A DNA stretch of 63,237 bases, the filler included, from Stramenopiles sp. TOSAG23-6 (taxonomy: Eukaryota): the NCBI GenBank assembly GCA_900128565.1. It is 8 parts of 8 records of this genome, joined end to end, with 100 filler letters (N's around TTAATTAATTAA, not from the genome) between each part and the next. Parts side by side here need not be neighbours in the genome. Positions count along the whole stretch, not along the records: positions 47,084 to 58,738 come from LT636250.1; 7 more parts are not named here. The stretch is one strand, 5' to 3'. The position numbers were made by a program, and so were the translations under genes. Within the stretch, counting starts at the first letter, position 1, and every line of letters starts with the position of its first letter. Shown here piece after piece: positions 11,864 to 63,237 of the stretch. The notes beneath the pieces are model-generated. The model searched no databases. It was not told the origin of the DNA and worked only from the letters and a program-made list of their open reading frames with translations.

Positions 11864-13190
11864 ATGCAACTAGGACACTGTCGAGAAGCGTCTTTGCTAG
11901 AATATTGAAACGCTTGCTGTAACATTCTACAGCAGCATCTATCTCTCATATATACATTATTTCTTTCATCTGTCTCTTCATTTAATAATGATGAAAGTAT
12001 GGATCTGGATGTCTTTATTTTATCTTCTGTTGTGTGCGTAATATTCTTTGAAAAATATTTCAAAAAATCTAAAAAAAAATGTTAGGTACAAAATTTCGTA
12101 CGAAAAAACAAATCGATTTTTTTGTGAAAAAAAAAATAAAAACATACTTTGCATACTTTGATAATCGGCTCTTTTTCCTCTTTTTTAACATATCATAGTA
12201 TTTTAAACTTGATAGTAATTTTACCACTGGTAAACTATGGCTACTTGTTCCCCCAGTTTCTGTTTTTGGTTTCCACACTGATGTATGTACATTCGGTGAA
12301 TTACCTCTACTATATAAGTCATATTGACCTGGACCAGGTGATGAAGCAACATGTAATTTTTTACTTTTGTTTTTTGGTGACCTCCAACGTCGTCCTTTGA
12401 GTGAGGCGTAATATAACGCTGTTGTATTATACATGCCTGGACCCGGAGTGCTTCCAGCATGTTTTAATTGATTAAGAAGTGTTCCAGAAGAAGTACCAAT
12501 ACCAAATGAAGCACTCCTGGTGTTTTCTGGAAATTTAACGTTATATTCACCTGGGGCTGGCGAAAATTTTGCCTCCATGATCATTCTGTCAACATCAGAT
12601 TTAACTTTTGTTGTATTGAACTTACCTCCTTTACTTAACTGTTTTAGTTTAATATTATATTCACCAGGTCCTGGTTCTCTTTTACTCTTGTAAATAATTT
12701 GATCAAGAGCAGATTTTGGATTGCCAGTAGAAAAAACACAACCAGATTTAGAATAGCCTAATTCAAGTAACTTGGGCTCATATTTATTCTTACGGAGATG
12801 GTTCATGGCTGCAATGCCTCTTTTATTTTGTAATTTGCGTCTTTCGGATTCTACTTGCATAGAAGCTAAGATTTGTGAACGTGTAATAGATTTAATAGAT
12901 TCACTTTGACTTGGTTCTTTCATGGATTGTGTTGAAATTGCACAAGGCTTCCATAGACTATAGTCTATAGCATATTCCGATGCCTGATTTATATCAACAC
13001 TGTCTGAATTTGTTTGAATAACTGATTGATTGGGTTTGTGACTATCAGAGTATGTTGGTGTTGTCTCATTCAAGGAGAATGAATCACTAAAGTCACTGTC
13101 AGCGTTGTTGAGAGCTGCCAATTGTTGCATTGCATGTTGAAACATCAAAGACTCTCCTTTGTGCTTTCGAGAACTTGATTGAGTGATCAT
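11864..13190 (-). CDS. SHIPPO-repeat (ODF3/STPG-like) axonemal protein; exons 13190-12148 and 12040-11864, continues into gap
   Basis: PGPGEY, PAPGEY, PGPGMY, PGPGQY repeats; frame restored by removing intron 12041-12147. Confidence 0.75.
12041..12147 (-). other. Introner-like GT-AT intron (107 nt, phase 2)
   Basis: GTATGT...CAAAGAATAT; joins the only open downstream frame; nearby AGs out of frame; exact 3' end slightly less certain. Confidence 0.7.
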
Positions 13191-17600: not shown

Positions 17601-20600
17601 TGCCTTTAATCTTGAAACATTTTCTTCTCTCTGAAGGGTGAGTTTATTTTCCAGAGCTCGTAGTTCAGATCTGTGTTGACGGGCTAAGTCTTCAAATGCG
17701 TTATTTTTATTACCCTCGAATTCATCCAGAGAACGCATCATTTCTTTGCGATGAAGAGTAGCCATCTTTTCAATGGCAGCTTTGTGTATTGCATCTTTCT
17801 CCTGGAGAGATAATTCATGATCTTCGATAAATTCAGCATATTCTTTTTTAATTTTATTCAAATCATTATCAGCTGATTGTGCAAATTCATCTAAATGAGC
17901 TTGAAGTTTTTCCAATGATTTTGCTTTGTCTTCTTTGTGAAGGATTTTCAGAGCCTTTAATTCGCATAAATGCTCGTCTTTTAAATCTCTCATCTTGTCT
18001 TCGTGGTTTGTTAATGCTTTATCAAGTTTATTTTCGAGTAATTTAACTTTAGTTAAATGAGTATTCTTGATATTTTCATAGTTGGCAAGTTCCTCTCCTG
18101 CCTTTTTTTCCCAATGAGCTGTCTCTGCCTCTGCAGTAGCAAGTTCTTCGTTGTATCTGCTAGCCATCACTTGTAATGCTGTCTTCTTATTATAATGATG
18201 TTCTTCCTTGATTTTTTCAATTTCTTCTTTATAATGAGATTCTAGTTTTGATAGAGCATTTTCGTGTACTTGGACTTTTGCATCAGCTACTTCTTCGCGT
18301 ATTTTATTTTGATTTTCTAAATTACGTAATTCATATTGATGTTGACGCGCCAAATCTTTAAGTTCATTCTTTTTATTTTTGTCTGCGTCATCTAAACACA
18401 TTTTCATTTCAGCTTTATGTTGTTTAGCGATTTTGTCAAGTTCAGTTCTATGAAGTTTATCCTTTTCTCTTTGTGATAATTTTCGCTTCTCTAAAATATC
18501 AGCATATTGTAATTTGATATCACGTAATTGTTTTTCTTGTATTTTTATTTCACCATCATGTCGTTTTTGAAGTTCCTGTAGTGCTAGAGACTTATCCCCA
18601 TGATGACTTTCGATCAGCGCATTCAATTCTTTTGCATATTTATCAGTCATTTCTTTCAATACAGCATCGTGTGCCATTTGAACTTTTTCAATTTTTAAAT
18701 TCATAGCTTTCACGTCTGCTTTCTGGCTTTGGATTACCTCTTTATATTGTTTTTCAGACTTCTCCATTTTTCGCTCCCCTAAAATTAATTTTTCTTCAGC
18801 GATAGCCAGCTCCTTACTATATTTATCAGCCATCGCTTGCATTGCTTTCTTTTTATTGCAATGGTGTTCTTCCTTGAACTGTTCAATCTCTTCTTTATGA
18901 TCAGTTTCAAGTTTGGATAAGGCGCGTTCATATTCCTTCACTTTTGTATCAGTGATTTCTTTATTCAGTTCAAGTTTTCCTTCAATCTCTTTTATTTCAG
19001 ATCGATGTAGCCGCACTAAATCTTCAAGAGCAGCCTTTTTATTACCATCCGCTTCTTCCAAACAATGCTTCATTTCAGATTTGTGTTTTTTGGCCAATTT
19101 CATTATTGCAGTTTCGTGTAGAGTATCCTTTTTTTTTTGTGACAATTTGGAACTCTCTACAAAATCAGTATATTGTTTTTGGATACCATTTAATTTCTTT
19201 TCTTTTATTTTTTGTTCATCATCATGCCGTTTTTGAAGTTCATTTAGTGCGTTTTTCATATCACCTTTATGACTTTCTGCTTGTGTATTAAGTTTATTTG
19301 TAAATGTATCTCTCATTTCTTTCAATACTCGTTCGCGTGTTTCTTCCGTTTTCTTCAGATTTTTGTGCATTAATTTCATTTTTATTTCATGTTCATTCTT
19401 TTGATGTCTACACTCTTGGTTTGCTTCTTTTGTCTTTTCTTGCCATTGGATGATATCATTTTCAGCTTTATCAAGTTGTTTTTTGTATTTTTCATTTAAT
19501 GCATCCACAGCTTTCTTTTTATCACAATGATGATCTTCCTTATATTTTTCGATTTCTTCCGCATGCTGAGTAGTAAGTCTAGCAATGGCAAATTCATGAG
19601 CGGTCATTTCTGCGTCGTATGCTTCCTTATGCATTAAAATTTGTCCTTCAATATCACCAATTTCAGATTTATGCTGCCAAGCAAGAGCTTCAACCTCATC
19701 TTTATGTTTTCCTCGAATTTCGTCTAAACATTTCTTCATTTCGACATCATGATGAATTTTTAACTTGTTAATTTCATCTCTATGCACTCCTTTATTTTTC
19801 TCTACTAATAACTGATGACGCTCAATATCATCTGTATACTTTGCTTTTGCATTCTCTAGTTCAGACTCAATTACAGAAACCTTTTTTTCGTGATCATTTT
19901 TGATTTCTTGTAGTATTTTCTTCATTTGCTTTTCTTTTTTCTTTGCAAGATCATCCAATTCTTCCGTGTGTTTATCATTACTTTTTCGTAATACATTTGC
20001 ATGGGTAATCTCTGCCTTTTCCAACTTCTTTTCCCAAAAGATAGTGCCTATCTTGTATTGCTTTTTACACGCTTTCATTTCGACTTCATGCTTATTTTTT
20101 ACTTCTTCATATTTTTTAGCAAAATTTTCGGTTTTATTTTGCCAACGTATTGCTTCCTTTTCAGCCTCATCAAGTTTATTATTACATTTTTCTGACATAA
20201 TATCTAATGCTTTTGATTTTTCACGACGGTGTTCTTCTTTGATCACTTCAATGCGTTCTTCATGATCCGTGATCATCGCTTCTTTTACATGAGAAAGTTC
20301 AATTTTGTGTGACTCTGATATTTCTTCCATTAATGCGTTATGACGTTCCTCCATCTCTGATGTACGTAATTGCAGTTCATCTCTGTGCTCGATGATGATT
20401 GTTTTAATCTCATCTTCATGAGCTTTCTTCTTTTCCTTCTGTGATATTTGAAGAGCATCACAATGTAGTGTGAAAAAATATGTTTTTTTGATTTGTTTTG
20501 TTAGGTACAAAATTTCGTATGAAAAAAAAATTGATTTATTAGAGAAACGTACTTTTTCCTTAGCAAGACCAAGTGCTTCTTTCGCTGAAGCTCTTTCAAT

Positions 20601-21772: not shown

Positions 21773-23407
21773 TTATTTGACTTTACTCTCCATAGCAATT
21801 TCTTCAGGCTGGACACCAAGTGCTGCATCGCCGTTTATAGAGAGACCACGAGCAACAGAAATATTTTCGCCATTTTGTTGTAAAAATTTAAAATATGAAT
21901 CAGTAATCCTTTTTCGTTCTTTCCGCCGAGTACTTAAATTCCAAGACGTGAGTTGTTGTTGTCGTGCAATTTCATCTTCAGTAAAATTATGCTGTGCCAA
22001 CCATGCCATTGGAGCACACCTAAGAAGAAAACATAACATATCTGTACGCTGTATCGCTTTTGCCGTAGCTCTTTGACGACCTTCTTTTCTATGAAAATTT
22101 GCATACATTTGTAATAATTTGACACCTCGAGGACGCATCAAGGCATCCTTTGTACTGCCTACAAAAGCAGGATGTCTCATTCGATCTAAAAACTCTAAAA
22201 TATCCTTATTTCGTTTATCCTCAACTCGCCGCGCCTCATCCATATTCTTTTGTCTTTCATCATTACAAAGGGTACATCCTAAACCAAATTCAATGCCATT
22301 TGGGGGGTGACGACATCGAAGAGGACAAAGCAGTGGATCATTATGTTGTATCCCAGGACATGCTACATATTCTTCATCATCGTTATCTTTGGCATATGAT
22401 GTGTTTGTATTAAGCCCCGATGATAACTTTTTAACATTTTTACCAGTTTTGTATTTAGCAAGTGTCTTCCATACTCCAGGTTTATGGCAGTTGACACAAA
22501 AATGAGTATTACCCCAACAACAAAATGAAGCGACTGAGCAACAAAATCTACATTTATGTGCAATCCAATCCTTTCCATGTTTTGGGCATTCTTCTACATT
22601 ATCTACAGCACAACTTGGACATAAAAGATCTTTGGCAACATCATCTTCATCTTCTTCGTCTTCATCAGCGGCACCACAACGATAATTTCCACCAAAATAA
22701 GGTCGCTTACACTTATAACATTGATAAAACACAAATTCATGTAACGCAAATTGAAGAGGTTTTTGATAAAAATCACCACCAGGTTTAATCACCGCGGCAT
22801 CTTTATCTAAACCTTCCATTTTGAAACGAAGTAAAGCTCTACGATGAACATCCGCTTCTAATGCAATCATAGGCCCAACAATGTCTTCAACCGACCAATG
22901 ACGAATTTGTTCCTTACACTGTGGACATTTCATAAACTCAAATGACATTCGATGACCAGGATATCCCTTTTCTAATAAATCTCGAACACACGCTGCATGA
23001 AAAAGATGCCCACATTTTAGCTGTATCGTAGGTGCGTTCCCGAGAGCATCCACATAACAAATCGTGCAATATTCTTCACTCATGTTCAAATCACAAGTAA
23101 GGCATGTATTTTGGAAAAATATTTCAAAAAAAATCATTAAGTATACAATTTCGTACTAAAAATAAATTCGAAATTGAAAAAAAAAATAAAAACATACATG
23201 GAGGACACGCTTTTGCAGATGGATCCCAGCCGGGCACGGCACCTTCCCATAAAACTTCTCTCAATTCTATTCCTAATGGTTCATGGTCTGCGGAAGTATT
23301 AAAAAACAAAACGGCAGGAATAATTTCCTCTGAAATTCCATGAAAGAATATACGCTGTCGTTGGCCGTCCACAGAAACGTGAAGTGTACCGCGTCGTTGA
23401 TTGAGAC
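21773..23407 (-). CDS. MYCBP2/Highwire-like RING-Cys-relay E3 ubiquitin ligase, C-terminal part; exons 23407-23198 and 23103-21773
   Basis: RING (CTIC...CGHLFHAAC...CPQC), YQCYKCKRPYFGGNYRC, CPKHG, KCRFCCSVASFCCWGNTHFC, CPLRCRHPPNGIEFGLGCTLC match the MYCBP2 C-terminus. Confidence 0.88.
23104..23197 (-). other. Introner-like GT-AT intron (94 nt, phase 1)
   Basis: CAT|GTATGT...AATACAT|G; gives ACPPCLTC before the RING. Confidence 0.85.
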
Positions 23408-23561: not shown

Positions 23562-23723
23562 GTATGTTTGCATTAGGAACTTCGATTTTTTTTTTTCGTA
23601 CGAAATTTTGTACCTAACGATTTTTCAAAATTTGCATTAGGAATTTCGATTTTTTTTTCTATGAAAATTTTTGTACCTAACGATTTTTCAAAACCAACTT
23701 TTAAATATTTTTTCACAATACAT
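23562..23723 (+). other. Introner-like GT-AT intron with internal ~63-bp tandem duplication
   Basis: GTATGT start, two TACCTAAC cores, TTCACAATACAT end; upstream exon in gap. Confidence 0.75.
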
Positions 23724-25763: not shown

Positions 25764-28700
25764 ATGGCAGATGATGTCGCGGATAGCATGCTAGATGCTT
25801 TCACGGCACCAGATGCCTCTGATATCTTAGTAGATACTGATACTGAAGGACTGCGTTCGCCTGCAGCAACCACCGATTCATTAGAAAGAAGCTCAGATAG
25901 TGCTAGCAGTGATGATATCACAGCAATAGATAGTAAAATAGAAACAGAAAGTAATAGACAGATTGATAGGCTTCGCCCGGGTGTAGGAGTTTCAGTAAGG
26001 GTTAATCAAGATGTTCCTAACGCCAAAAGCTACGGGTTCTATGGTCTACAATTTAGTGACGCCTTCGATGGTGAAGGTCTAAAAATATCAAAAATTGGAC
26101 CTGGTCCAATTTTAGATTGTAAGAAAGTAGAGGTTGGCATGTGTATTGTAGCAGTGCACCCAAGTCGGCCTTCTAAAATGTTTGATAGTTCCATTTCAAA
26201 TTATATGATTATGGCAAAGTATAAAGTTGCTAAAACATTCCTAAAACAAACTGCACACTTATCAAAAGAAATAATATTTGCATTTGTCACTCCTCAGATT
26301 CGGGAGAGTATTAAACATGCATGTGCGACGAGGCTACAGCGTACATTTAGAGGTTATTCTGTCAGACTTAATTACTTTCAGGGAAATTTTGATGAGGTCA
26401 CTGCAAGACACAAAGATGAAGAAACTATAGAAGAAGTTACAAAAGTGCAATTGAAGAGGTCCCTATTTGACGCTGAAATACCGACAAAAATAAGAGTTGA
26501 AGTTGTTGCTGCTAGAAACACTATAAAAGAGGTTGCACTCATTGGTGGTACCAGACGATGTCATGGCTGTGAATTTGCACCGGGAGTGTACGAAACAGGC
26601 TTAGTAGTAGATGGTTTTCATGAGCTTGATAATGGTGATCTTGGGCCAATCCAGATGAATGGAGGTGTATTTGTTGGTATGTCTCTTGTAGCAATTGAAA
26701 GATCAAAAGATAATCATAGTTTCCAACTCCCCATAATTAGTAAATATCCTGCGCTTATTGAGTCAGATCGTCTAATAAACTTCTTGCAAAACACCAGTCA
26801 TGAAAAGAAAGTGCTCGTTTTTGGTATGCTATCTAGTAAAGCAAGACAAAAAATGCAAGAATATTGTATTAAGAAATTACAGAGGCAATTCCGCAGATGG
26901 TATAAGAATATGACATATGCAGAACGAATAAAGAGACTCAAGGCTGCAATTAAAAAATATGAACAAATAGAAACCAAATACAAGTTAAAACTGAAGGCAT
27001 TGTCAAAATATTTAAATGATATTGAAGCAAAAGAGGAAACTTCGAAGTTGAGTGAGAAGAAAAAGTATGTGAAATTTTTTAGAAAAAGACTGGAAAAGAC
27101 TCTACTAATGCTCAGGAGAAATCCTCCGACGCTAGTTTCACGAAAAAGTAAAAGCAAAAGCAAAACTTTGCCAAAAACAATAGCCCCAAAGAAAAAGCAG
27201 ATACATTCTCCAATAAAAACTAAAGAAAGAAAAGTTACCCCAAAGCAAATGAAGTCTATCTCAAGACTTAAAGATATACCTGAAGAAACAAAAATTAAGC
27301 CAATGAAAATTAAGTCTACCTCAAAGCTTGAAGATATACCTGAAGAAAGAAAAGTTAAGCGAAAGAAAATTAAGCCTATCGCTAAATTTAAAGATATACC
27401 TGAAGAAGCAAAAACATTGCCAAAACACATAAACTCTGTGCCCAAACTTGAAGATATACCGGAAGAAACATTATTTGAAAAATTTGTGCCTGGTGAAAAA
27501 AGACATAAAACCCCAGAAGAAGCCGTAGAACAAAAATATGTCGTAGAGTTACACCAGAAACAATTCATAGATGTAGAAAACCATTTTGAAAATGAAACTG
27601 TAAATATACTTGATCAAAAGATTCCAGAAAATAGATCTGAAGCTGATGCGTTGAGATCTCCACGCTGGACTGACTGGGAAATGAAATATGATGAAACACT
27701 TGGAAAGAATTATTGGGTAAATTTATATACGGCTGAGTTTTCGTGGGGATCAAAACATCCATTCGAAACAGCAAATGGGCAACGATATAGCACATTTCGA
27801 CAAAGTTCACTTCGTGGACAAGCCAATACCAATAGTGCATGTACGTTCGCATGATAAATTTCAACTTTATTTATTTTTTCGTACTAAATTTTGTACCTAA
27901 CGTTTTTTTTGTGTGACATGTTTTTTCACAGTACATTTAGTGGAGATAATGGAATTGGGGCAACAGACTCAAATAATCTTTATTTTAATGATAACTTGGA
28001 AAAAACGTCTAAGGGCAGTAGAAATTCTAAAGCAGTAACGCTACATGATCGACTCTACAGCGAGCCTACGGTTAGTATGTTTAGACATCAACAGGGACAT
28101 CGTAACCATCCAGATTTTCTTCATGCGACTTCAAACAGAAAACGAAAAAAATCCAAGTCGCCAGAAAATAGGAAACAAAAAGCAGGGAGATTTAATGTAA
28201 AGAAAGATACAAATATTTCGAGCATTCTTGGGGCATTGAATACTCTTAGTATTGATATTAATAATATTGGATTACATAGATACCCGCCCAGTGCACTGAC
28301 TCACAAAACACATGTTGATAGAGATACTACATACTCAAATAAAGAGAAAGTAGAAAAAATAATATGGAATGAATTTCCTGAAATTCTTCACTTTCTGAAA
28401 ACCCAGCTTGGAAGAAAAAATATATCCATCATGCAGCTATTTAATTTAAGCGACAGCAATAAGGATAATCATCTTACTTGCGATGAATTTATCAAAGGTT
28501 TATTGATTACAGGTATTCGGCCTTTGCCAAAGGATGCTCAACTTCAAGATATGTTTGCATCGTTTGATCATGAAGGAAGAGGAAAAATATCGTTTAGTGA
28601 TTTAGAAAAGGGAATGCGTCAGAGTCTTGGGATACATATTCCGTATCCTATACCTACATTGCATCCAAAAAAGAAATTGCATCCAAAAAAGAACCCAGTA

Positions 28701-30911: not shown

Positions 30912-33908
30912 TCAACAATTTGGTTTATACGAAGCAACAACAGTCTCATTTGCGTCCAATTCATGGTGTGCTGTAGACCAGTCAACGGCAGATGCCCAAG
31001 AAGATGCTTGATCTGTTTTACACCACTCTCGCAAATCATTGACTTCAATAATAATTTCTCTTTCTCTTCTTGGACAAACTAAAAGATTTTTTTCATTTTC
31101 TACTGAGGCACAATACAATTCATTATTTCCTGATGATAGTCTTGACACGACTGATATACCAGGCGCTTGGTGCAATAGTTTTATTAAACTTCCAAAAGTA
31201 GATCGAGCTCCAGTTTTATTCCAGCTTATATAATTGCCTAATTTTGAAACACAAAATCCATACACTCCCTTAAAATTACCCTTATGATGTAAATGTTGTC
31301 GTTGTACTATTTGATTTCGAAGAAAATAAAATACCTCATTTTCATTACCATTTTTCACGATTGTTTCCATTTGTTCATGTACAGAGTTGCATACTGCATA
31401 GTTTGGATCCCCCAACTTAGAGCAAGGTTGAAATTTTGATTCAGAATATTTCATTGGAAGAAATCTTTGTAGAGCATAGTTTCCAACTTTACTTACAATG
31501 AACCGAAGTTGAGTCACATTTGTTGGGTAATAATTTATTGGTCCCACAAAATGTTCTCTGAACTGAAGTAATATATCTGCAGTCTTTGTAAGACAAATTC
31601 CTCGAGAACCTCCGATAAGATTAATAACAATCGCACCTTCATTGAGAACATTGTCCGCCTCAAACACTTCAGACTCACGATTTAGCCAAGGCGTTATTGA
31701 GCCATTTTCTGTTTCTGTTATAAAACGTCTACCATCATCAAGACGTAATACATTAATTCCTATGAGATTTTTTGGTGTTCTACTATTCATTTCTTCAATA
31801 TTCTCTTTACATCCTTTTATATTCTTGTTTTGCTTTATGATTTTTGTACTACTATTACTATGCTCATCACAAAGGACCTCGCGATAAAGATCTAACGCCT
31901 TCGCATCGCCAAAATCCAACCATTGATCTTTGAGCGTCAGATGATCAAAAACTATTTTGAGATGTCGCATCGAAACCAAATTGTTCTTTATTAATGACTT
32001 CACTAAAGTACATGCAGCAGAAACTGACTGAGATGTATCACGAATACACCAACTATTTAATAAGACAGACGCCAACCTTGATTGATACTGCGGATCATTA
32101 CATCTTGCTGAATGCATAAAATATTTACTTTTGAATTTAGTATGTTTTTTCAAATAATCAAAGACTTCTGCTTCTCCCAATGTATCATTTTCTATTCGAA
32201 GTCGAGTCAATAAAGTTTCAAATGTATTATGTATTTTAGAAAAATATTTCAAAAAAAAAANGTTNGGNAACAACATTTCGTACGAAAAAAAACTCGATTT
32301 TTTTGTAAAAAAAAAAAATAAAACATACATGATTTGGAATCACTTTTGCATCTTCCATGGTTTCTAAAACAACCATTTTACTGAACGAGGAATCGTGTGA
32401 AAATTTGACTATATTATTGAAATAAGACACATCATTACAAAGAAAGGTAGACAAATTGTCTAGGAGCATCCACAATGCTGCAATGGATTCATCAGAGCCT
32501 TCTGTAATCCAATTTATTACTTTTTCGTTTCGCATGTATTTTGGAAAAATATTTCAAAAAAAAAATTGAAAATTTGTTAGGTACAAAATTTACTATAAAA
32601 AAAAAAAATCGATTTTTTTGTTTAAAAAAAAAAATAAAACTTACATATTTTGTATTTCATTCGGTGTATAGGACATACAAGATATATCCGATATATCCGA
32701 TATATCAGAAACATCAGGAACATCTGATATACGTAGTACTTCTGGATGTGCTTGTTGTTTTATCCCATACAATCTATCGGAAATAGGAGTACTATAAGAA
32801 TCAAAATCATCGGATTCATCATCTTGTTTAAAGCTTTCCTCTAATGCTCTCTCATGCCATGACATTGCTCCTTTATTATCCCCTTCAATTTGCTTCATAA
32901 GACCAATAATGTTACACGTCTTTTCACCTACATGATTTGACTCTGTAGTGGGAATGTATTTTGGAAAAATATTTGAAAAAATTTCTAAAAAATTTGTTAG
33001 GTACAAATTTTTTTACCAAAAAAAAAAATAAATTCGATTTTTTTGTTAAAAAAAAATAAAACATACATATCTTTAATGAGTTGTATCATATGGTCACTAC
33101 TATGACAAGCCCTCAGAACTTCAGAGACCAACTCATCATCTACAAAACCATCAAAACCAGCAGACACTAAATGATCAAAAATATACCACGATGCTTCTTG
33201 GGCATGAAAATTAGGTAATTTGAGTAAACTTCGAATCAAGCTTCGCCTTTTACAAGCTATTTCTTGAGTTGTCAGTGTCATGATTGACTCGAAATATTTT
33301 TGATACTGTGGATAAGTGTCATTCAATTCATTTGCCTCACTTTCTCGGCCTTCCACTCGGAGTCGTAAAAGAAGTATTTGATACGTCTTGTGATCTGGAA
33401 AGATTGAAGTTTTCTCGAGAGTTGATATAAAGTCTCGCATCTCAAGCGTTGTGTAACAAGTATTTAAAATGAAGTGAAAATCATCAGGTGAAACATATGC
33501 ACGTTTAGCATGTATTCTATCTTGAATCATTGCTTTTGCTGAGTCAATTTCGTCTCTGTTTACATGACTGTTAATTTGACCCCGTATTAAACGTTCACTC
33601 TGTTTCACTCGAGGTTTTACATCTGAACGTTTCTCTTTAACTCGAGATTCTACACGGGAAAGTTTCGCTTTAACTAGAAGTTGCGAAGGGGAAGGTTTCT
33701 CTTTAACTCGAGATTGTACACGGGAAAGTTTCGCTTTAACTAGAAGTTGCGAAGGGGAAGGTTTCGCTTTAACTCGAGGATGCAATTTCACACGAGAGTT
33801 AGTTCCGTAAGCCCGATAGAATGTTCCAACACCACAATGGATACGTGTACCAGTAAACACTGAAATGCCATTCCACTGAAATCTTTGGGGTAGTCTAATT
33901 ATATTCAT
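30912..33908 (-). CDS. PPR-like helical-repeat protein, possibly organelle-targeted; exons 33908-33067, 32953-32645, 32533-32329, 32228-30912
   Basis: Internal repeat IFPDHKTYQILLLRLRVE / VIPNHNTFETLLTRLRIE; all three GT-AT introns restore frame; start codon uncertain. Confidence 0.7.
32229..32328 (-). other. Introner-like GT-AT intron (100 nt, phase 0)
   Basis: CAT|GTATGT...AAAATACAT; spliced product aligns gaplessly with the protein's other repeat. Confidence 0.88.
32534..32644 (-). other. Introner-like GT-AT intron (111 nt, phase 2)
   Basis: AT|GTAAGT...CCAAAATACAT|G; canonical U2-type donor. Confidence 0.85.
32954..33066 (-). other. Introner-like GT-AT intron (113 nt, phase 2)
   Basis: AT|GTATGT...CCAAAATACAT; internal TTTTAG out of frame. 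Confidence 0.85.
33630..33778 (-). repeat. 66-bp coding tandem repeat (~2.2 copies)
   Basis: RVKxKPSPSQLLVKAKLSRVxS repeated. Confidence 0.85.
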
Positions 33909-47762: not shown

Positions 47763-48673
47763 ATGCCCCCCCAAAAGAAGAAAGGGCGATGCTCCAAGAA
47801 GAAAGCAGAGAAGATTGATCTACTCATGTTGCTTCCAGATGATGTGCTAAAATTGATGGTTCAGTTACTCACAATAACAGAGCTAGCCAAAATGTCGGAA
47901 GTCTCTAAGCTGCTTAAAAGAATTGCACGACAGGCACCACTGTTTAAAGTTGCTTCGACTGGTCTTAACTTGATCAATACCTTTTACATGTATCAACACT
48001 TTGAAGAAGGAGAAAGTGATGTTGATCCAAGACTTAACACTGTGATCTCATTTAAAAAACTTGATGCATTCTCACAATTTACTGTTTTACTTGAGTTTCA
48101 TCAAAAGTGTGTTAAAAACCTTCGTATCCACTATGTTGATCTTCTTGTTGATGGTTGCAAAAAGACTTGCTTTGGGGAACCAATTGAATTTGTAAGAGAT
48201 GATAGAGCAATGATAGAGTACAATTTGCTTACCATTGAGAGACAAGCCCTCTTGGACAACATAGCCAGTGTGAGTATGGCACAAGATGACCTTTGTTATA
48301 ATGATGGTGAAGGAGGGCCATCTTATTATGCATCTGCATTTCTAGGTGATGTGCACGAACAATGGACTGGATCTTGGTATAGAGATTGGTTCCATTCTGA
48401 GATATTGCGTGGTCACACTTATGATGATGGTTCAGACTATGAGGGTTCTTTTGGTATTGGTAGTGATGAACATTTACGCGAGCTGCTAGTCTCTACAATG
48501 GATAATATTTGTAACTTAATGAGAGGTTTGTTTTATTTTTTTAATTTCGAATTTATATTTTTTCGTACGAAATTTTGTACCTAACGTATTTTTTTTAAAT
48601 ATTTTTCCAAAATACAGGTCGNTCCNAAGNANTGNCNAANGGCACNTATATTCCTAGGAAGACATCTATTTGA
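47763..48673 (+). CDS. F-box protein; exons 47763-48525 and 48618-~48673 (end uncertain, N-rich)
   Basis: F-box-like LLMLLPDDVLKLMVQLLTITELAKMSEVSKLLKRIA. Confidence 0.75.
48526..48617 (+). other. Introner-like intron, canonical GT-AG variant (92 nt)
   Basis: AG|GTTTGT...core...CCAAAATACAG|GT. Confidence 0.85.
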
Positions 48674-52010: not shown

Positions 52011-52336
52011 TTGAAGGCAAATGTAAGTCACGTAACACGAGAAAGATATATATGTAATAGCAATGTAGCTACTGTATTTTTGTGTGTTTGTGCACTTTAC
52101 ACGTCGGCGAGTTTGGATATGGCGCATCCAAAATTTCAAAATTTTCGAAAAATTCCGAAAAATTCAAAAAAACTTCATCATACAAGATACCCGGTAACGT
52201 TCAGTTCAGCGAAAATCGGATAAATCGTAGTAGGCAACAAGGTACTGTATTTATCACTCTTTAAAGTCACGTATATTAACAGAGAAATTAAAGTATTGCT
52301 CGGTACATAATAAGTTCACTCGAATCTCGAGTCAAT

Positions 52337-53485: not shown

Positions 53486-53672
53486 ATTACAAGATAAAAA
53501 TTATTTTGATAGAAATATTTATATTTTGGTCAGACGAAAATGTAGAAATATTTATTGTTTTGGTTGGATGAAAATGTAGAAATATACATTTTTTTAAATA
53601 CAGCTTTGCATATACGGTTTTATGTATTGCAAATAGTTTCATTCAAGACACATATTTTTCAATATTGTTATT

Positions 53673-56248
53673 TTAAAAGGGTAAATGTCGTTGTACAAGA
53701 TGTGGTCCAATTTCTTCAAAATGTTGCTTTGTAAGACATAATGCAGAAAATGTACTCATTGAACCCATAATAGAGCCACCTTTCCATGCTCCATACTCTG
53801 GAGCACTTACTATATTTGTTTTTTGTAAAGGTACTTTCGCAGAAATCTCTTGTGAAAAACGTTGTTGAAAACCTTTGAATTTCGTGCTTCCTCCACTAAG
53901 AATTATATTATTATAAAGGTCATTTTGTATCTCCATCTTTTCCTCTATACTTCCAGGAGGTTTGATTCCGTCTATTGCATTGGCTATTAATGTATGGACA
54001 CCTACAATTTTACTACGATTTCCTATTGTTTTCTCACCCCATCTTCCTTTCTGTTTCCATAACAAAGGTTTGAGTTTCTTATACGTGTGAGTTGACGTAT
54101 CACTTTTAGGATACTGGATTAGCATGTCGTCAAACAGAGAAGGATTGAAAAGACACTCTGGGCCACGAATTCTTTCATTTCCAAATTTTATAATATTGCC
54201 ATCTGGTAATTCGTAGCCTGGTAATTTACGTTCTCCTTTTTCAAGAAGAACAGCACAATCCCGTTTATATATATCATCACATGTGTCCCCTACGGCTACA
54301 TAGCAAAGTGAGTGCTTGACATGTGATGCTAAATGATATTCTAAAAATTTTGGGACTCGGGTGCTTACTTCATATGCACCTTCTGATCGGGCAACAGAAG
54401 CAGCTTCACGCATTCTTTTGTCTATATGGCCATGTAACCAATCAGTAATCCTCTTGCCACCAAATGGTAATCTTCGAAGTCCTCTGTGTAATAACTCTGC
54501 ATCGAAAAAGGGTGCAGCCCATGTGACACCGCCTCCACAATCAAGAACACAGCCAGTGGTACGTCCCGTCGCGTAGAGGGAGAGCTGTGAATGACATCCT
54601 AGAAAAAGACCTGGCATGTTAACTTCATCAAAGAGAACTGTTGCAAGTTTTTCATAGTAACCAGGAAGTTCAGCCGGATGAACCGTAAAAATTAAAGCAC
54701 GATCATTTGCTGTTGTTGTGAGAGGTTTTTCGATTAAATGGTTTACATATGCTGCTAACTCCGACCATCCCCTATCATTCTGCCCAAATCCTAGTTTATA
54801 ATCTACAACTCCATGTATGGTGAAAAATATATTTACTACCTGTATTGTTTGAACATTCGTTAGGTATGGTATTCTCTATACAAAATAAAAAAAATAAAAA
54901 AAATAAAAAAAAATAAAAAAAAATGAAAAAAAAATGAAATTCATAATGAAATCGTACAGTGTCTTCGTCTACATGCGTCATGCCACGAATACTTCCCGTA
55001 TCATAAAGTCTTCGAACATTCATTCGTTGATGTGAATAGCACGCATCCCAACCAAACCGAAATTTACTTTTTTTACCTTCCGGTATTAACATTTTTGATT
55101 GAGGCATGAATCCTGTAAAGTTCAATGGACAGTTTTGTCGAGGGATTCCAATACACGTTTGATCAGTGATCCAAGGTTCGCATGTATTGTGAAAAAAAAA
55201 TGAAATCATGAAAAAAATCGTTAGGTACGAAATTTCGTACGAAAAAACAATTAATATATCCATTTGATGATGAAAACGTACATGTTCCTGCCATACCAAC
55301 TTTAGTGATTTCACTTCCACAATCCATTACAATGCTTGGATTATTATACCATTTAATTTTAAATCTTCGTTTAAATTCAAAACGAGAAATGTAACCACTT
55401 CCATCTTCATCAAAATCTTCAAAATCGCTCAAAGTGCCCATTTTTGCTTTAAAAAAAGCTTTTTTAGAAATAAAACCACTACCATCAGTATCAATATTTG
55501 TAAATATTTCATCTCTTCGTTTTTCTTCATCTCTTTCACGTTTTTTATCGCGTTGTCGCACATTTTTATGTCGAATATCTAGATTTTGTTCAGTCGTATT
55601 TGAATTTAAATTTGAATTTACACTTGAATTTAAATTTGATTTAGCATTTGATTCAGTATTTGAATGAACATTATCTATATCCTTAGATGTATCCTGAGAT
55701 GCTTTGAATATTTCTTCATCAGACGATGAAGTTTCGTTTTCCCACTGGTAGAGTTTTTCTTCTACTTCTTCTTTCAATTTGGGCATTAGAAAAGCTGTAT
55801 CTCGTAATTCAAGCATTTCAATTACTTTGCTCTCCTTCTGAAATCCTTCACTATCTGCTTTGCCAGGTTTTGTTGACATAACTAACGGGGTATCAAATGC
55901 ATGGTTAACTTCATCTACACCTGCACCCGAAGCCACTAGTGCCTTGACACATGTCCAAAATCCATTTTTACACGCTAAATGAAGAGGTGTATTTCCATCA
56001 GAAAGCTCCTTCGCATTCAAGTCAGTCATACTTAAACTGGAAAGAAAATTTGTCATTTTGTAATTTCCTTTATTGACTGCAGTTAGAAGAGCATTCATTT
56101 TTGACTGGGGAAATGCGTTTACGTCCATTCCAGCTGCAAGAATAATAGCCACAGATTCCACATCGTCTTTTCGTGCGGCTTGCAATAGTTTCATACCCAT
56201 CACCTTTTTCTCCATTTCAGTCAATGGACTTGCTGTTATAATACTCAT
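53673..56248 (-). CDS. Ankyrin + EF-hand + actin-related fusion protein (~776 aa); exons 56248-55282, 55181-54958, 54812-53673
   Basis: GNTPLHLAC; DTDGSGFIS and DEDGSGYIS; actin motifs VMDCGS, SLYATGRTTGCVLDCGGG, YELPDG, LYNNIILSGGST, AWKGGSI. Confidence 0.85.
54813..54957 (-). other. Divergent family intron, GT-AT (145 nt); in-frame alternative AG at 54840
   Basis: GTACGA...ATACCTAAC...ATATTTTTCACCATACAT; both ends preserve frame. Confidence 0.65.
55182..55281 (-). other. Introner-like GT-AT intron (100 nt, phase 1)
   Basis: ACAT|GTACGT...TTCACAATACAT|G; gives AGTCEPWITDQTCIGIPR, colinear with actin [18 protein letters not shown]. Confidence 0.9.
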
Positions 56249-56690
56249 TGTATACTGTTTCTAGAGTTATATGTAACACGTCAAGTCTTCATTTTTTACT
56301 CGCATTCACTTCCAATATTTATACACTTGCTAGTAGTAGGATATATACAAACAACGAAATCAACGGACATACGTACGAATAAACGGCCGAAATCCTACTA
56401 CCACTAACCCTAGCTACTAGAATCTGATGGGTCGATACCCAGGTACCCTAACTACTGCTATTATATTGAATCCATCCAACTATTTTGATTTGATAGACAC
56501 ATTTTTATCATGATTACTATTAAATTTTGAAGAAGAATCAAATTAAAGAAACAAAATTCTTGCTGATTCCAAAAGAATATTTTTTTTATTTTCAATATAG
56601 AAATGAGGGGGGTGGCACTTGAGCAAATTAATAAATTCGTTTTTGTAGCGAAATAGTACGAAATAAGTGCACTTGAAATGCATTTCCAAG

Positions 56691-57170
56691 TTATTGCGCA
56701 TTGGTCGCAACGAGATATCCTCCCCAAGCAGACAATGCCAACATGAGTACTTCTGGTACATAGTGCATTGGGTACTTCACTGGCAATTTATCCCCGAGAA
56801 AGTTGAACTTGGCGTTCCATGGGTACAGCAAACCAACAGCTAAAGAAGATGCAGCTCCAATCTTAACAGCAACTGCTGGTGGTAATAAAGTCATAGAATA
56901 ACACAATGCCAGGAGAGACACAGATTGACCTCGAATCCTATAATGTGAACATAAAAAATGTATAGAGAAAACACTTTGTTAGTAATAAATTGGCATTTCA
57001 AAAGTGATGAAAAGTACGCCGAAGACAATAACATACCAGAACTTCAACATTGGAGTAGCAGGAGTTTCAAAGTGGTCTGTCACCATTTTCGCTGGAGTGA
57101 AGAGCATCTGTAAACCATACAGTCCAAAGGTGCCAGCGAAAACCTTCACGTAAGTAGTTGCAAGAGACAT
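56691..57170 (-). CDS. Small membrane protein (~126 aa); exons 57170-57037 and 56937-56691
   Basis: Two hydrophobic ORFs joined in frame (MLKFW-IRGQSV) by a canonical intron. Confidence 0.8.
56938..57036 (-). other. Conventional GT-AG intron (non-family)
   Basis: GTATGT...TACTAAC...TTCACATTATAG. Confidence 0.88.
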
Positions 57171-57496
57171 TTTAGGAGTTAGGTGAAAGAAGAGAGGAAA
57201 AGTTTTATTTTTTTGCTGAGATTGTGTGCCGATTTGTGAATGGTGTGAAATTGAAATTCGCTTGAAATTCATTGCTGTCATTATTATTCCAATACAAGAA
57301 CACGAAATAAATCGAAATCTCAAATCTAATAAATCGTTCGAGAAAATTTTTTACGCGCGCAAATTATTCGGAATTTTTTTAATTAGTATTATCTTTTGTA
57401 CTTAAAAAAAACCTTGCTTGCTTACACATTTTAATAATTCTCTCAATGGATTTATAGAAGGGCAGACATTTTTATTGTATCCCCTTATTTGTTTAA

Positions 57497-58685
57497 ATGG
57501 GACACGTTAAATATGGAAAAAGTGCTCCTAAAAACGACAGGTCTGCGTTTGCTCGAATTCCTGATGCTGTTCTTCGCCTTTTTATTGCAATGGCTCCCGC
57601 AGAGACACTGGGTAGACTTTGTGCTTTGAGTCATTTCCGACAAATTGCAAAAGAAGACACATACTGGCGACCCTTATTTATGAAAACATATGGTCATAAA
57701 AAAGGCAAAAATGGTGATAGCGTTCAAAAGAGCAATCAATTTGAAGGGCAGGTTGCTGAACTAGTTCGTCGCTTCATCGAAATCACGAATGCTGAACGCC
57801 AAACAGCTTACTTTTACCTTGAGCTTGCACAAGGTAACAATATATCTACTCTACCAACTTTGGAAAATGCAATCCAGATTTATTATAATAGTGCACAAGC
57901 ATTACCAGCTTCTTCATGGGTTCCTGCTCGCTTACCTGGACTTTCATCAACGTCTATACGTTTTATTTGTTTTTCAATTTTTTATCTAATTTTTTTTTCA
58001 TATGAAATTTTGTACCTAACAAATTGTACAAAAAAAAAAATTTCACAATATATTCAAAGAAAGACTCTGATTCAAACACGCTTCTTTCTTCTGGAATAAA
58101 AGTTTCGCAAACAACCAAAGAACGAACGTTCAAAATGGTTGCAGGTGGTTTAGAATTCCGACCAACAACAAAGTATTATTATCGTTTTGCTCGAAAATTT
58201 GTGAAGTCAGCCATTCGTGATGACTATATTACGATTCGATTTGACGCACCTAACCCTAACCCTACCTCTAATAGTGAACAATTATTAGGAATTGATGGAA
58301 ATTGTGGAAATGGTTTAATTTCAAAATTAGATAAACCAGCGCGAAGAAGAGCAGGGATTAAGAAAGTAAAGGTAAAAAGAAAAGACCGCGATGATCATAA
58401 TAAGAAACGAAAGGATGGAACTGTTCTGAGGAGTACTACACCGATACGTTTTTTTTTTTTTTCAATTTTTTATCTAATTTTTTTTTCGTACGAAATTTCG
58501 TACCTAACAAAAATTGTATGAAAAAAAAATATATATTTTTTCACAATATATATACGTCGTGACAGTAATACGCCACATAGTGACGTAAGCAATGGTCGAT
58601 TATCTCCTCCCACCATCATTACAAATGGACGATTTTTACCAGAATATAATGCTTTGAAAACACCAAGTGTTCTTCAAGTAGGTAT
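57497..58685 (+). CDS. F-box-like plus UBA-like protein, N-terminal exons 57497-57955, 58054-58443, 58552-58685
   Basis: FARIPDAVLRLFI...LCALSHFRQIAKEDTYWR; VRRFIEITNAERQTAYFYLE...LENAIQIYY; frames joined by AT-AT introns. Confidence 0.7.
57956..58053 (+). other. Introner-like AT-AT intron (98 nt, phase 0)
   Basis: ATACGTTTT...TACCTAAC...TTCACAATATAT; restores frame. Confidence 0.75.
58444..58551 (+). other. Introner-like AT-AT intron (108 nt, phase 0)
   Basis: ATACGTTTT...TACCTAAC...TTCACAATATAT; 6-nt repeat ATACGT makes the boundary slideable. Confidence 0.72.
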
Positions 58686-58738
58686 GTATGTTTTATTTTT
58701 TTTTCAAATTTGAATTTTTTTTTCGTACGAAATTTTGT
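58686..58738 (+). other. Introner-like intron, truncated by contig end
   Basis: AT|GTATGTTTTAT...TTTCGTACGAAATTTTGT. Confidence 0.8.
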
Positions 58739-58838: not shown

Positions 58839-60213
58839 TTGATTTTGAAAATTTGTTATATTGACAAAATTGTGCATATTTTTCATGTGATTTGGCAAGT
58901 TTTATTTGAAATGTAGCTATTTGTAATGTCCATTGATGTTTTTGTATTTGCTGTTTTTGTTGTATTTCAGTATTTTTTTGTTCATTAGGGTTAGGGTTTA
59001 CAGGGTTAGGGTCAACAATTATTTTTTTTTTTTGTATTGAAAATAAATTTTGTTTTTTTTCTTTAGTTGATTTTTTTGTCATACAATCAACATTTTCAAG
59101 AGTACAAATAAGCACAGGACTTGATGAATCATTTAAATTCATTGGAATGACAAAAGCTAAAAAATCAATTTTTAATTCTACAAAAATTCGTTTTGAATGA
59201 ATCATTGCATCAGCAAAAATATTTCGTGATTCTTGAATTGATTCTATTAATTTACGGTTTGTAAGTTTTTTAGGTTTTTCAGGTTTTTTAGGGTAATTAT
59301 CTGAGTCTGGAATATTGTTTGTAGTGTTGTTGTTTGTATATATTTCACTATTTTTTATATTTTTTTCAATATTNTTTTCAATATTTTTTTCAATGTTTTC
59401 AATTTCAATATTTTTTTCAATTTCTGGAGTTGAAAAAAATAAAAGTAAAAATTCAATACATCGTTTGTTATACACAAATAAAATAGGAGAAATTTGAAAT
59501 TGAACATTCATATCTAATANATCATCTGGAGGATTTTTATGAATGAAAATACGAGCTATACATTTTCTATTTGTACCTTTTTCGTGTTTTTCATGTTTTT
59601 CGTGTTTTTCATGTTTTTGATATTTTGGTTTAATTATATATTTAAATTCATTGTTTGAATTATTTCCATTATTTTCACTATAATNATCATTAATATTGTC
59701 ACAAACCTGTAATGAATCCAAAAGTAGTTCAATAGTATTTGACATAATCATTTTTTTATAATGATATGATCCTTCAAACATAATCATCAAAGACGATTTT
59801 TTATCAAATTTTTCATTTTTAGCAAAATCATCAAAACTTTTCGTACGAAATGTTGTACCTAACGATTTATCAAAAAAATGTTCAGTCACTAGTGATATTC
59901 TACAACATTTTAGATGTAACTGAATATCAGTCATAATATAATCTATAGGTACCTGATAAGTATTGATATTCACAGCATCTTGTGAGCTTAATGTAGTGAT
60001 ATCCATACCCAATTTTTGACTTAAAGAAAAAATATCTACTTCAAAATCATCATCAATTCCATGTATTTTAGAAAAATATTTCAAAAAAATTCTAAAAAAT
60101 TTGTTAGGTACAACATTTANTATNAAAAAAAAATTCGATTTTTTTGCNAAAAAAANAATAAAACATACATTCTCCCCAATGGCCCAATTGTACCAACCTG
60201 CCCAAGAATAATC
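58839..60213 (-). CDS. VPS13: VPS13-family lipid-transfer protein, internal fragment; exons 60213-60169 and 60060-58839
   Basis: SWAGWYNWAIG, NPPDD...ISPILFVYNKRCIEFLLLFF, FVIPMNLND...VLICTLENV resemble the VPS13 N-terminal region (recognised by eye). Confidence 0.7.
60061..60168 (-). other. Introner-like GT-AT intron (108 nt, phase 0)
   Basis: AT|GTATGT...CTAAAATACAT|G; restores frame. Confidence 0.85.
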
Positions 60214-61838: not shown

Positions 61839-63181
61839 AGCAGCATTTGAACGATACATTGCACCATTTTCAGCAGCATTTGAACGATACATTACACCAT
61901 TTTCAGTAGAAAATTGTAAGTGGTTTTGTTTCCTCATTGATGATATTTCCCCTCGAAATGACGATTCAGATGATGATCCAAGAAATGGCAATGATTTGCT
62001 ACACTTTGGAGCATTCATGATTTCATCGAATGCCTCTCTGAATGATCCTCTTCGATTTGAAGTAGATCGTCGCTTGGTCAAACTTGACATATACTATAAA
62101 AAATATAAAAATTAAAAATTGTTTAGGTACAANATTTCNTATNAAAAAAAATCCGAAACATTCATGTGTAAAATGTATCGAAATAAAAACTAAAGAAAGC
62201 TGTTAGGTACAACATTTCGTATGAAAAAAAAATCCGAAACATTCATGAGTAAAATGTACATAATGCTTGTTGGCGAAGTATCAAACCGTTTAAACTNGTA
62301 ATTCGGTATTCTTGCTCTCTGTTCCATCTCCTTTACAGCCATATCAAAATCAGAAAGACCGCCAGGATTAGGTGGAGGGAATTCATAAGAACATCTTTCA
62401 CGATGTATTGTAAAAAAAATTGAAATTTTTGAAAAAATGTTAGCTTAGCTAAAGATGAAATACAAAATAATTATTAGGTACAAAATTTCGTATGAAAACA
62501 AATATAAAGTACACTTGGATGAGCCCGTTGGACACTCTCTACAGTTGCACCTTCGGCAAAAATTGCATCTAATTTTGCTTCAGTTTCTTTTTTCGTCAAA
62601 CCACCAAAGAATCTCGAACCAAAATTCAAGTGTAAAGGAAATCTCTCAGCGGGTAGACTATTACATGTATTGTGAAAAATATTTTTTTTTGTAAAATTTG
62701 TTAGGTACGGAATTTCGTACGAAAAAAAAATTTAGACAAAAAATTGAAAAAAATAAAAGATACATGGAAAACCATTATCCAACAATGATAGTACTTCTCT
62801 ACGTTTAGGCTTCTCATTTTTTTCGTGATATTTGACAAACGATTCAAATGCATAGTGAAAAAATATTTAAAAAATTTTTAATTTGTTTGGTACAAAAATG
62901 TTTTGAAAAAAAATAAATTTAAAATTCATGCTGAAAAACATATTCCAAAAAAACAAAAAAAAAAAGTTTTTGTTTTTTTTGTTAGGTACAAAATTTCGTA
63001 TGAAAAAAAAATTAAAATTCATGATGAAAAACATACACGCACTTTCATTAACTTCGACAACATCTTCAGATACAGATATCTTTTTGATTTTCTTGTTATA
63101 GTATTTACCACTTGTTTTAACGAGAACTTGGGACTTTATTTCGAAAATATGAGGATACTTTGAAAGAAAATCTTTTACCAT
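61839..63181 (-). CDS. Unknown protein fragment; exons 63181-63037, 62847-62764, 62664-62513, 62402-62260, 62088-61839
   Basis: Continuous open frame only after removing four GT-AT introns. Confidence 0.72.
62089..62259 (-). other. Introner-like GT-AT intron with internal duplication (171 nt, phase 2)
   Basis: AT|GTACAT...two cores...TATAGTATAT|G; the TAG just upstream leads to a stop. Confidence 0.78.
62403..62512 (-). other. Introner-like GT-AT intron (110 nt, phase 0)
   Basis: GTACTT...TACCTAAT...GCTAAC...TTACAATACAT. Confidence 0.8.
62665..62763 (-). other. Introner-like GT-AT intron (99 nt, phase 1)
   Basis: CAT|GTATCT...TACCTAAC...TTCACAATACAT|GT. Confidence 0.85.
62848..63036 (-). 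other. Introner-like GT-AT intron with internal duplication (189 nt, phase 1)
   Basis: GTATGT...two cores...TTCACTATGCAT. Confidence 0.8.
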
Positions 63182-63237
63182 TTTGTAAACAATATTCTAC
63201 ATTTTAAAATTTTAGCATATATTACAAAATTGTATAC

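Follow-up and report, generated by a model that had tools for sequence, protein, structure and literature searches.

Putative GT-AT introns of a short, introner-like repeat family in an actin-like gene of Stramenopiles sp. TOSAG23-6

The stretch of DNA analysed here (hereafter the window; 63,237 nucleotides from assembly GCA_900128565.1 of Stramenopiles sp. TOSAG23-6) carries on its minus strand a gene that combines ankyrin repeats, EF-hands and an actin-like domain. This gene is interrupted at 55281..55182 by 100 nucleotides (nt) that, as written, begin with GT and end with AT (intron 1). Comparison with an orthologous protein indicates that this stretch is very probably an intron with a 3' end other than AG, the removal of which yields GMAGT|CEPW. 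We show that it belongs to a family of short AT-rich repeats with 18 complete copies in the window. The window is made up of 8 pieces, five of ~11.7 kb and three of ~1.4 kb, rather than of one locus, and the pieces are joined by N44-TTAATTAATTAA-N44 spacers (11681-11780, 23459-23558, 35222-35321, 46984-47083, 58739-58838, 60239-60338 and 61739-61838). Features that seem interrupted by N runs appear so because piece ends cut them. The guanine-plus-cytosine (GC) content of the window is ~35%, and intron 1 lies in the piece 47084-58738.

The actin-like gene is read from three exons, all on the minus strand. Exon 1 (55282..56248, with its ATG at 56248..56246) encodes ankyrin repeats and EF-hands, both recognised by Pfam, and the first ~20 residues of the actin fold, ending ...IVMDCGSEITKVGMAGT, i.e., ...GMAGT followed by T, the first base of a split codon. 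Exon 2 (54958..55181; GC 0.41) supplies the other two bases of that codon and 74 further codons (CEPWITDQ...HVDEDT), which code for the actin N-terminal strands and an enlarged loop. Exon 3 (53676..54812, stop codon at 53675..53673) contains the main body of the actin-like domain and matches Pfam Actin with an E-value of 6e-59 over profile positions 73-408 of 410. The host gene has a full-length domain of the actin-family fold, including the N-terminal phosphate-binding strand.

Intron 1 (55182..55281, minus strand) has a GC content of 25%, compared with 38-45% in its flanks, and reads GTACGTTTT...GTACCTAAC...TTTTTCACAATACAT (at greater length GTACGTTTTC ... TTTTTTCGTACGAAATTTCGTACCTAACGA ... 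TTTTTTTTTCACAATACAT, with the ends GTACGTTTTC...TTTTTCACAATACAT) between the exon borders ...GGAACAT and GCGAACC.... It opens with a 5' splice-site-like hexamer, GTACGT (55276..55281). Further in lies a perfect 16-nt palindrome, GTACGAAATTTCGTAC (55225..55240), which forms a hairpin in the centroid fold and whose 3' arm overlaps a branch-point-like motif, GTACCTAAC (CTAAC, 55220..55228), 39 nt upstream of the intron end. T-runs follow the CTAAC, and the 3' block consists of a T-run and then CACAATACAT (55182..55200). Of the features usual for U2-type introns, the 5' GTAYGT and the predicted branch site with its pyrimidine tract are thus present, and the terminal AG is absent, as intron 1 ends in CAT. 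The first-pass annotation, which had proposed this intron, stated that no AG lies between the branch motif and the intron end; in fact AG is absent from the entire intron, and the first AG past the branch-like motif is at 55114..55113, 69 nt beyond the intron end. Removal of the 100 nt joins ...GMAGT to CEPWITDQTCIGIPR... in phase 1 with 79 and 80 open codons on either side, the other two phases closing within 6-19 codons. Read-through of the intron meets a stop at codon 39, and because its length leaves a remainder of one when divided by three, excision is required to keep the frame.

Where exactly the exons join was first argued from actin itself, with the claim that the spliced product is colinear with actin without gaps. 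That part stands, since the product aligns ungapped over positions 7-42 of a hidden Markov model (HMM) built from 74 actins, with a score of only 5.3 bits (independent E-value 0.0028). The tail of exon 1 matches an alignment of 24 actins at positions 7-24 (hhalign, E 4e-4). The exon 2 side does not carry its half of the claim, as exon 2 alone gave no significant hhalign match to the actin alignment (best E 0.2, in the wrong region). Actin similarity by itself is a weak anchor for the junction, and the weight is carried by an orthologue, P0121 (779 residues, eukprot name g331.t1), which has the same ankyrin, EF-hand and actin architecture as the host gene and was found when exon 3 was used to scan 1.84 billion representative proteins without a profile.

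We compared P0121 with the gene exon by exon using BLASTP, so that no joined sequence entered the test. Exon 1 aligns to P0121 residues 13-320 (E 1e-80), ending at GMAG; residue 321 corresponds to the final complete codon of exon 1 and residue 322 to the split codon; the exon 2 stretch 54958-55179 aligns to residues 323-398 (E 2e-25, 51% identity); and exon 3 aligns to residues 399-779 with about 57-58% identity. The order of the exons on P0121 is contiguous and free of gaps at the intron 1 junction, with the CEPWITDQTCIGIPR segment retained, so that the proposed excision is correct to the residue and the orthologue alignment that the first-pass annotation had asked for came out in its favour. 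Two near-invariant actin residues span the junction with their spacing kept (G24-x3-P28 in actin, G320-x3-P324 in P0121, G-T|C-E-P in the window), and P0121 residues 304-334 align ungapped to residues 2-32 of solved actin. Given this residue-exact excision against P0121, the 3' end of intron 1 cannot be AG. Judged from these alignments, the exon-exon junction is settled as far as protein comparison allows.

A canonical reading of the same locus would be a 184-nt GT-AG intron (55296..55113, minus strand) with the donor GTATGGCA at 55296 and the acceptor TTTACAG, its G at 55113, in which the element would be buried and the CEPW...NFT segment would be noncoding. No other GT-AG alternative is in frame and stop-free; this one relies on the first AG past the branch motif and yields KVGF, which resembles KAGF of actin. 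It would, however, discard 28 residues that are kept and 50% conserved in P0121 (MAGALEPWVVQPTNIGINQRMCPHDFE vs MAGTCEPWITDQTCIGIPRQNCPLNFT), and in a scripted global alignment to P0121 it scores 1915 with a 28-residue gap, compared with 2031 for the GT-AT model; its actin HMM score also falls, from 197.8 to 191.9 bits. Furthermore, the 69 nt past the element have an exon-like GC content of 0.43, compared with 0.25 in the element, and the family's own donor would be ignored. We rejected this intron and give it almost no credence.

The second intron of the gene (intron 2; 54813..54957, minus strand, 145 nt, GTACGATTT...CACCATACAT) belongs to the same element family and offers a stronger test than intron 1, since an in-frame AG is bypassed there. 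This AG (54840..54841, AACAATACAG) lies 27 nt before the AT end and ~19 nt past the branch motif, and it is apparently not used. The alignment of exon 3 to P0121 starts at residue 399, and it does so only if the exon begins with the base that follows 54813, i.e., if the intron ends at CAT. When translation is started just after the AG, the alignment begins at the tenth residue, which is again residue 399; the nine codons between 54839 and 54813 are unaligned, and residue 399 directly follows the end of exon 2 at residue 398. The variant with an AG-ended intron 2 scores 2012 in the global alignment to P0121. The first-pass annotation was right about intron 1 itself, and it missed both this better test and the membership of the intron in a transposon-like (introner-type) repeat family.

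The public gene model at this locus reflects neither intron. The best database match to exon 3 is P0001 (eukprot GSMAST32.ASY1.ANO1.44.1), which is identical to the translation of the window save for two removed stretches; it starts at the Met at 54617, inside exon 3, and misses introns 1 and 2. The two stretches that P0001 removes as GT-AG introns (54341-54379 and 53950-54084, minus strand) are both conserved in P0121, so that both removals look like artefacts of annotation.

Beyond the actin-like gene, the core motif of the family, GTACCTAAC, occurs 30 times in the window with at most one mismatch (21 exact), compared with 5.4 expected, and none of 100 shuffles reached 30; the palindrome GTACGAAATTTCGTAC has 21 matches with at most three mismatches, compared with 0.32 expected. 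The family comprises 18 complete copies of 90-189 nt and six partial copies cut by piece ends. Besides introns 1 and 2, the complete copies with GT-AT ends on the minus strand are A (12041..12147, 107 nt), B (20463..20552, 90 nt, with AA before GT), X (23104..23197, 94 nt, in a RING-finger gene, phase 1, with 59 and 60 open codons), G2 (32229..32328, 100 nt), E (32534..32644, 111 nt), F (32954..33066, 113 nt), M (60061..60168, 108 nt), N (62089..62259, 171 nt), O (62403..62512, 110 nt), P (62665..62763, 99 nt) and Q (62848..63036, 189 nt). Those on the plus strand are C (23562..23723, 162 nt, its 5' flank cut by a spacer) and D (27841..27936, 96 nt). Three plus-strand copies differ at one end: K (57956..58053, 98 nt) and L (58444..58551, 108 nt) both run ATACG...TATAT and are thus AT-AT, and H (48526..48617, 92 nt) is the sole complete copy with AG where the others have AT. 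Four copies stand in a row in the gene piece 61839-63237, separated by exons of ~80-210 nt.

Overall, the termini of the complete copies are GT-AT in 15, AT-AT in two (K and L) and GT-AG in one (H). Among the partial copies, one 3' end is AT (copy T) and one is AG (copy V), and the 5' end is GT in 4/4. The family consensus is GTAYGTTTT ... TTTTCGTACGAAATTTYGTACCTAAC ... T-runs ... TTCA[CA]AATA[CT]AT. Counted over 17 copies, the 5' end has G at +1 in 15 and A in two, T at +2 in all 17, A at +3 in 16, G at +5 in 14 and T at +6 in 16; the 3' end has T at -1 in 16 and G in one, A at -2 in all 17, C at -3 in 13 and T in four, A at -4 in 16 and T at -5 in 16. In 17 of the 18 copies the branch motif lies 33-47 nt from the 3' end; copy O contains an additional CTAAC at 37 nt. 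Pairwise identity between copies is 48-85% (median 66%). What has stayed conserved across these diverged copies is the 5' GTAYGTTTT, the TACCTAAC arm and the 3' end. Copies E, F, I, K and M show decay in the 5' arm of the palindrome, whereas its 3' arm persists. Setting aside the spacer-cut 5' flank of copy C (0.13), the GC content of the family introns is 14-27%, compared with 28-48% in their flanks.

Three of the introns (62848-63036, 62089-62259 and 23562-23723) are tandem or nested double copies with two cores each, and each is apparently removed as one unit. In copy H (48526-48617, plus strand) and partial copy V (60214-60238, minus strand), G replaces T at the last position (AAAATACAG and CACAATATAG, respectively), which means that one family site is present in both AG and AT versions. 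All 18 complete and six partial copies (24/24) lie in the sense orientation relative to the host open reading frame. The sole antisense trace is a plus-strand core at 59843-59863 (~59775-59925) inside a minus-strand VPS13-like reading frame (58786-60060), which stays open across the fragment (...DKSLGTTFRTKSFDD...) and in which the core may be an exonised antisense insertion. Pfam searches of the exons flanking the other copies gave no further homology anchors, as most junctions lie in unconserved or low-complexity proteins.

Reading frames were examined across the family. At least 34 codons are open on both sides in one phase for 14 of the 18 complete copies, the other four being limited by N or spacer. 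In nine of the 18 the length is not divisible by three, and excision restores the frame in all eight of these that could be tested, whereas random excisions of 98 or 100 nt restore it in ~10% (520 and 512 of 5000, respectively). For copies whose length is a multiple of three, read-through meets a stop in all except B and M. We also examined the 17 copies without a terminal AG by pairing the element's own donor with the first AG past the branch motif, a test that replaced a listing of all in-frame GT/GC-AG and AT-AC pairs because the latter was too permissive. The first AG causes a frameshift in 13 of the 17, and in one (intron 1) it creates a TGA at the junction; only three stay open (B, K and intron 2), and for intron 2 this option is contradicted by P0121. 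The frame outcome with the first AG is that of chance (about one third), while the YAT end always fits, with the caveat that arguments from frame fix the acceptor only modulo three. An AG lies 5 nt before the YAT end and out of frame in copies A, D and N (CAAAGAATAT, CACAGTACAT and TATAGTATAT), where, to judge from the sequence, it seems to be ignored. Copy A has another out-of-frame AG at -28, and copy D has one 4 nt after its end that is likewise out of frame with its own donor. A donor at the second GT of GTAYGT (+4) was also considered and dropped, as it gives acceptors without a common dinucleotide and the fit of copy D looks coincidental.

The cutting positions are subject to a further ambiguity. 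ACATG occurs at both borders of intron 1 and gives five equivalent registers, from AC-AT via GT-AT to TA-TG, all with one and the same mRNA. The first-pass annotation had recognised that this repeat permits GT-AT or AT-AC and had pointed to 20463-20552, 62403-62512 and 62848-63036 as copies without it; these are real family members that lack AT before GT. The same intron and mRNA could thus arise from cuts 2 nt upstream at both ends, as a U2- or U12-type AT-AC intron with pairing of A at +1 and C at -1. AT-AC introns are an established class, AT precedes GT in 9 of the 18 complete copies, and C occupies -3 in 13 of the 17 tabulated. The other nine complete copies have no AT before GT, however, and the conserved GTAYGT would start at +3, where it would fit recognition by neither U1 nor U11/U6atac. 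Four of the 17 tabulated copies have T at -3 and end in TAT, so that a register 2 nt upstream would end there in AT and not in AC. At intron 2, whose border also lacks AT before GT, the GT-AT register gives D-T-G-V, compared with E-T-G-V in P0121, and the register 2 nt upstream gives D-N-G-V, replacing the shared Thr by Asn. We consider AT-AC splicing unlikely. The GT-AT register is favoured, not proven, because a GT start (A in two copies) and an AT end (G in one) are the most uniform termini among the 18 copies; the preference already expressed for GT-AT is now better supported by these uniform termini, the nine copies without AT, the TAT ends and the Thr at intron 2.

Unusual termini also raise the question of which spliceosome would act. 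GT-AT and AT-AT are described, in the cited passages, as rare U12 subtypes (PMC1557818; bioRxiv 10.1101/2020.10.12.336362), and removal of the family by the minor (U12-type) spliceosome would agree with the occurrence of both G and A at +1 and, loosely, with a T-run after +5 resembling RTATCYTTT. Against this, none of the 18 copies has TCC at +4 to +6 as in RTATCCTT; C at +5 is found only in copy P, and intron 1 reads GTACGTTT. The branch motif is CTAAC rather than TCCTTRAC. U12-type branch sites lie ~10-26 nt from the 3' end, whereas CTAAC lies 33-47 nt from it here. Minor-spliceosome removal is therefore quite improbable, and we infer that a major-type spliceosome removes the family.

We hold it probable that the account as a whole, i.e., major-type splicing in the GT-AT register of introns of introner origin, is correct. 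Intron 1 would be a spliceosomal intron descended from a short, AT-rich mobile element resembling miniature inverted-repeat transposable elements (MITEs) or introners. Such an element would bring along the GTAYGT 5' site, the CTAAC branch site by a small palindrome, a long T-run and the end ...CA[CA]AATAYAT, and the transcript would be cut between ...GGAACAT and GCGAACC..., most simply as GT...AT, restoring GMAGT|CEPW. The GT would be provided by the element and the closing AT of the intron by the target, in the way that classical introners obtain their AG. This AT might stem from a 2-bp target-site duplication, of which it would be one copy, or mark a preferred AT insertion site. The second catalytic step would then take the YAT ~33-47 nt downstream of the branch site even when an AG is nearer.

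Evidence bearing on this origin comes from the borders and the ends. AT precedes the 5' GT at 11 of 22 scorable 5' ends, compared with 9.4% expected (P = 1.3e-6); the nine complete copies without it have AA, GT, CT, AC, AG or CG. The elements have short inverted ends, ATGTAT/ATACAT, of ~6 nt, two of them exon bases, which are too short to name a superfamily. Across 17 copies the ends pair as T-A at +2/-4 in 16, as A-T at +3/-5 in 15, and as G-C in 13, A-T in two and G-T in two at +1/-3, with no A-C. K and L combine A at +1 with T at -3, a paired change relative to the G...C of most copies. This covariation amounts to one or two events because K and L may share descent.

Inverted ends and flanking AT are also what cut-and-paste elements show, and splicing of RNA might not be involved at all: the copies could be excised from DNA, as are the internal eliminated sequences of ciliates, or be ordinary transposon insertions into genes that are dead or polymorphic in a single-cell assembly, which would agree with the truncated public gene model at the locus. 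Nevertheless, all 24 intragenic copies are in sense, and the 5' splice-site, branch-site and T-run blocks are kept amid divergence, none of which excision from DNA would need. The ends are AT...AT, not TA as in the eliminated sequences of ciliates, and several genes with two to four copies keep long frames after excision, contrary to what pseudogenes would do. Nor are the copies fresh insertions, given how far they have diverged (median identity 66%). We regard excision or insertion at the DNA level as very unlikely, and removal from the RNA as the better reading.

Several observations nonetheless weigh against the account of GT-AT splicing, and they should be considered with it. Some copies have in-frame canonical alternatives, namely B (AG at +24), K (AG at +6, or GT at +4 with AG at +10) and D shifted by +4 (27845..27940). 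In K and L, with A at +1, an in-frame AC follows the AT end at a distance of exactly 12 nt, and these two copies might be spliced as AT-AC further downstream. Because G is tolerated at -1 (H and partial copy V), the copies with AT are possibly spliced inefficiently. Owing to the ACATG repeat, the register of intron 1 is formally undecidable from the DNA. With a fixed 2-bp AT motif, a duplication is indistinguishable from an insertion preference. The end-to-end helix AUGUAU/AUACAU forms in the minimum-energy fold of only two (P and D) of the five copies folded, each with two exon bases, and only one of the five folds beats its shuffles (z-scores -0.8, -0.7, -3.0, 0.0 and -0.5). As this terminal helix is weak, structure-guided end joining was dropped as the main mechanism, and why a major-type spliceosome would favour YAT over a nearby AG is unexplained. 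Finally, P0121 is the sole orthologue in the databases searched, including a search of longer proteins with exon 3; a corresponding search of longer proteins for ones containing exon 2 gave one candidate and none that scored; and P0121 is itself a gene model (g331.t1) and not a cDNA.

The family resembles the introners of Micromonas, Aureococcus, Symbiodinium, Chrysochromulina and other lineages in its many short similar copies at unrelated positions, in genes and in sense, as well as in its AT-richness relative to exons and perhaps in its short inverted ends and its short flanking repeat. According to the passages cited, introners supply one splice site and the duplicated target the other, such that splicing restores the original codons (PMC11282704, PMC9860276). 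Described introner families begin with GT, GC or GA and end with AG, in contrast to the AT end in 17 of the 18 complete copies here, and the putative duplication here is just 2 bp, not separable from a preference of insertion. Introner surveys begin with annotated introns and vet or discard families with unfamiliar splice sites (PMC12130899). Such a starting point and such vetting mean that the published surveys likely miss a GT-AT family.

Non-AG ends from mobile elements have a precedent in the tunicate Fritillaria borealis. Its MITE-derived introns have 3' ends such as AC and AT taken from exonic or target sequence and are removed by the U2-type spliceosome, with duplicated, divergent U2AF subunits binding the non-canonical 3' ends (PMC13326754, PMC11282704). 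In the introns so described the 5' end is non-canonical too (AG-AC and AG-AT prevail) and the termini are diverse, whereas the 5' site here is a textbook GTAYGT and only the last base deviates. Furthermore, Fritillaria is an animal, and the present organism is a stramenopile protist. In the marine protist Amoebophrya, a dinoflagellate parasite, introns likewise occur as repeated copies, with inverted repeats and with direct repeats of 3-5 nt that span their borders; the quoted sections report inconsistent terminal dinucleotides, an end-joining hairpin and no U1 found (PMC7789003). The family described here differs in its uniform termini, its classical 5' splice-site, branch and T-run signals and its weak end helix, and the nuclear gene fragments quoted for Amoebophrya have a GC content of ~54-58%, compared with ~35% in the window.

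U12-type introns with GT-AT or AT-AT termini and isolated U2-type GT-AT introns share the dinucleotides found here. They demonstrate that ligation after AT is within the reach of a spliceosome, one example being a GT-AT intron of DGCR2 that is conserved between human and mouse (PMC1557818). Such introns are rare singles with U12 signatures or one-offs, whereas in the present family GT-AT is the usual form, accompanied by U2-like signals and a branch site far from the 3' end.

Two other intron classes compare less well. Group II self-splicing introns begin with 5' GUGYG and end with AY 3'. A GU start and an end of A plus pyrimidine are therefore common to both, but the elements here are 90-190 nt long and have no group II domain structure; an Rfam search at the gathering threshold and a tRNA scan found no RNA family, tRNA or small nuclear RNA (snRNA) gene in the window. 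Nonconventional introns of the euglenid type, with a stable end helix and with neither a pyrimidine tract nor GT-AG-type signals, do not match a family with T-runs and GTAYGT.

Our full-text literature search found no paper on such an intron family, nor on non-canonical introns in MAST lineages. The MAST genome papers, in the portions consulted, treat introns only in methods or architecture statistics (PMC5778133, PMC12614181, bioRxiv 10.64898/2026.04.17.719054).

Two further features of the window concern the assembly and a neighbouring gene. The pieces 1-11680 and 35322-46983 are the same sequence at 99.8% identity, differing by an 18-nt CATTAT-repeat indel at 4713, substitutions at 4756 and 4808 and one N, and the family copy at 11575 is identical in both; the source assembly may be redundant here or may combine two haplotypes or cells. 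A long minus-strand open reading frame at 50481-52163 has poly-Q and QQQYK repeats throughout and no Pfam match.

All recognisable introns (24/24) in the ~51 kb of unique sequence belong to the family. It is conceivable, though we would put it somewhat short of an even chance, that a single mobile-element family gave rise to essentially all introns of this protist lineage and that a non-AG (YAT) 3' site is used in splicing them. The terminal AG of introns is among the most conserved signals of eukaryotic genes, and to our knowledge large-scale departures from it are few, namely those of Fritillaria, Amoebophrya, the euglenozoans and the U12 introns of Physarum. The splicing machinery of this protist seems to accept an unusual end signal. 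If this holds, a machinery that is otherwise of the major type and passes nearby AGs would imply a re-tuned recognition of the 3' splice site, for example through U2AF-like factors, step-2 factors or snRNA changes. Gene finders that expect GT-AG would then systematically mis-annotate such genomes, with truncated models, spurious introns, low gene counts and apparent pseudogenes. Because P0001 is mis-modelled in this way, gene catalogues and inferences of gene loss or pseudogenes in such genomes may be artefacts of GT-AG-only annotation. The family would also add a case in which a transposon target dinucleotide other than AG has been turned into a splice acceptor, and a proliferating element that makes GT-AT common while leaving the 5' and branch sites ordinary would constitute a clean natural experiment on the recognition of intron 3' ends.

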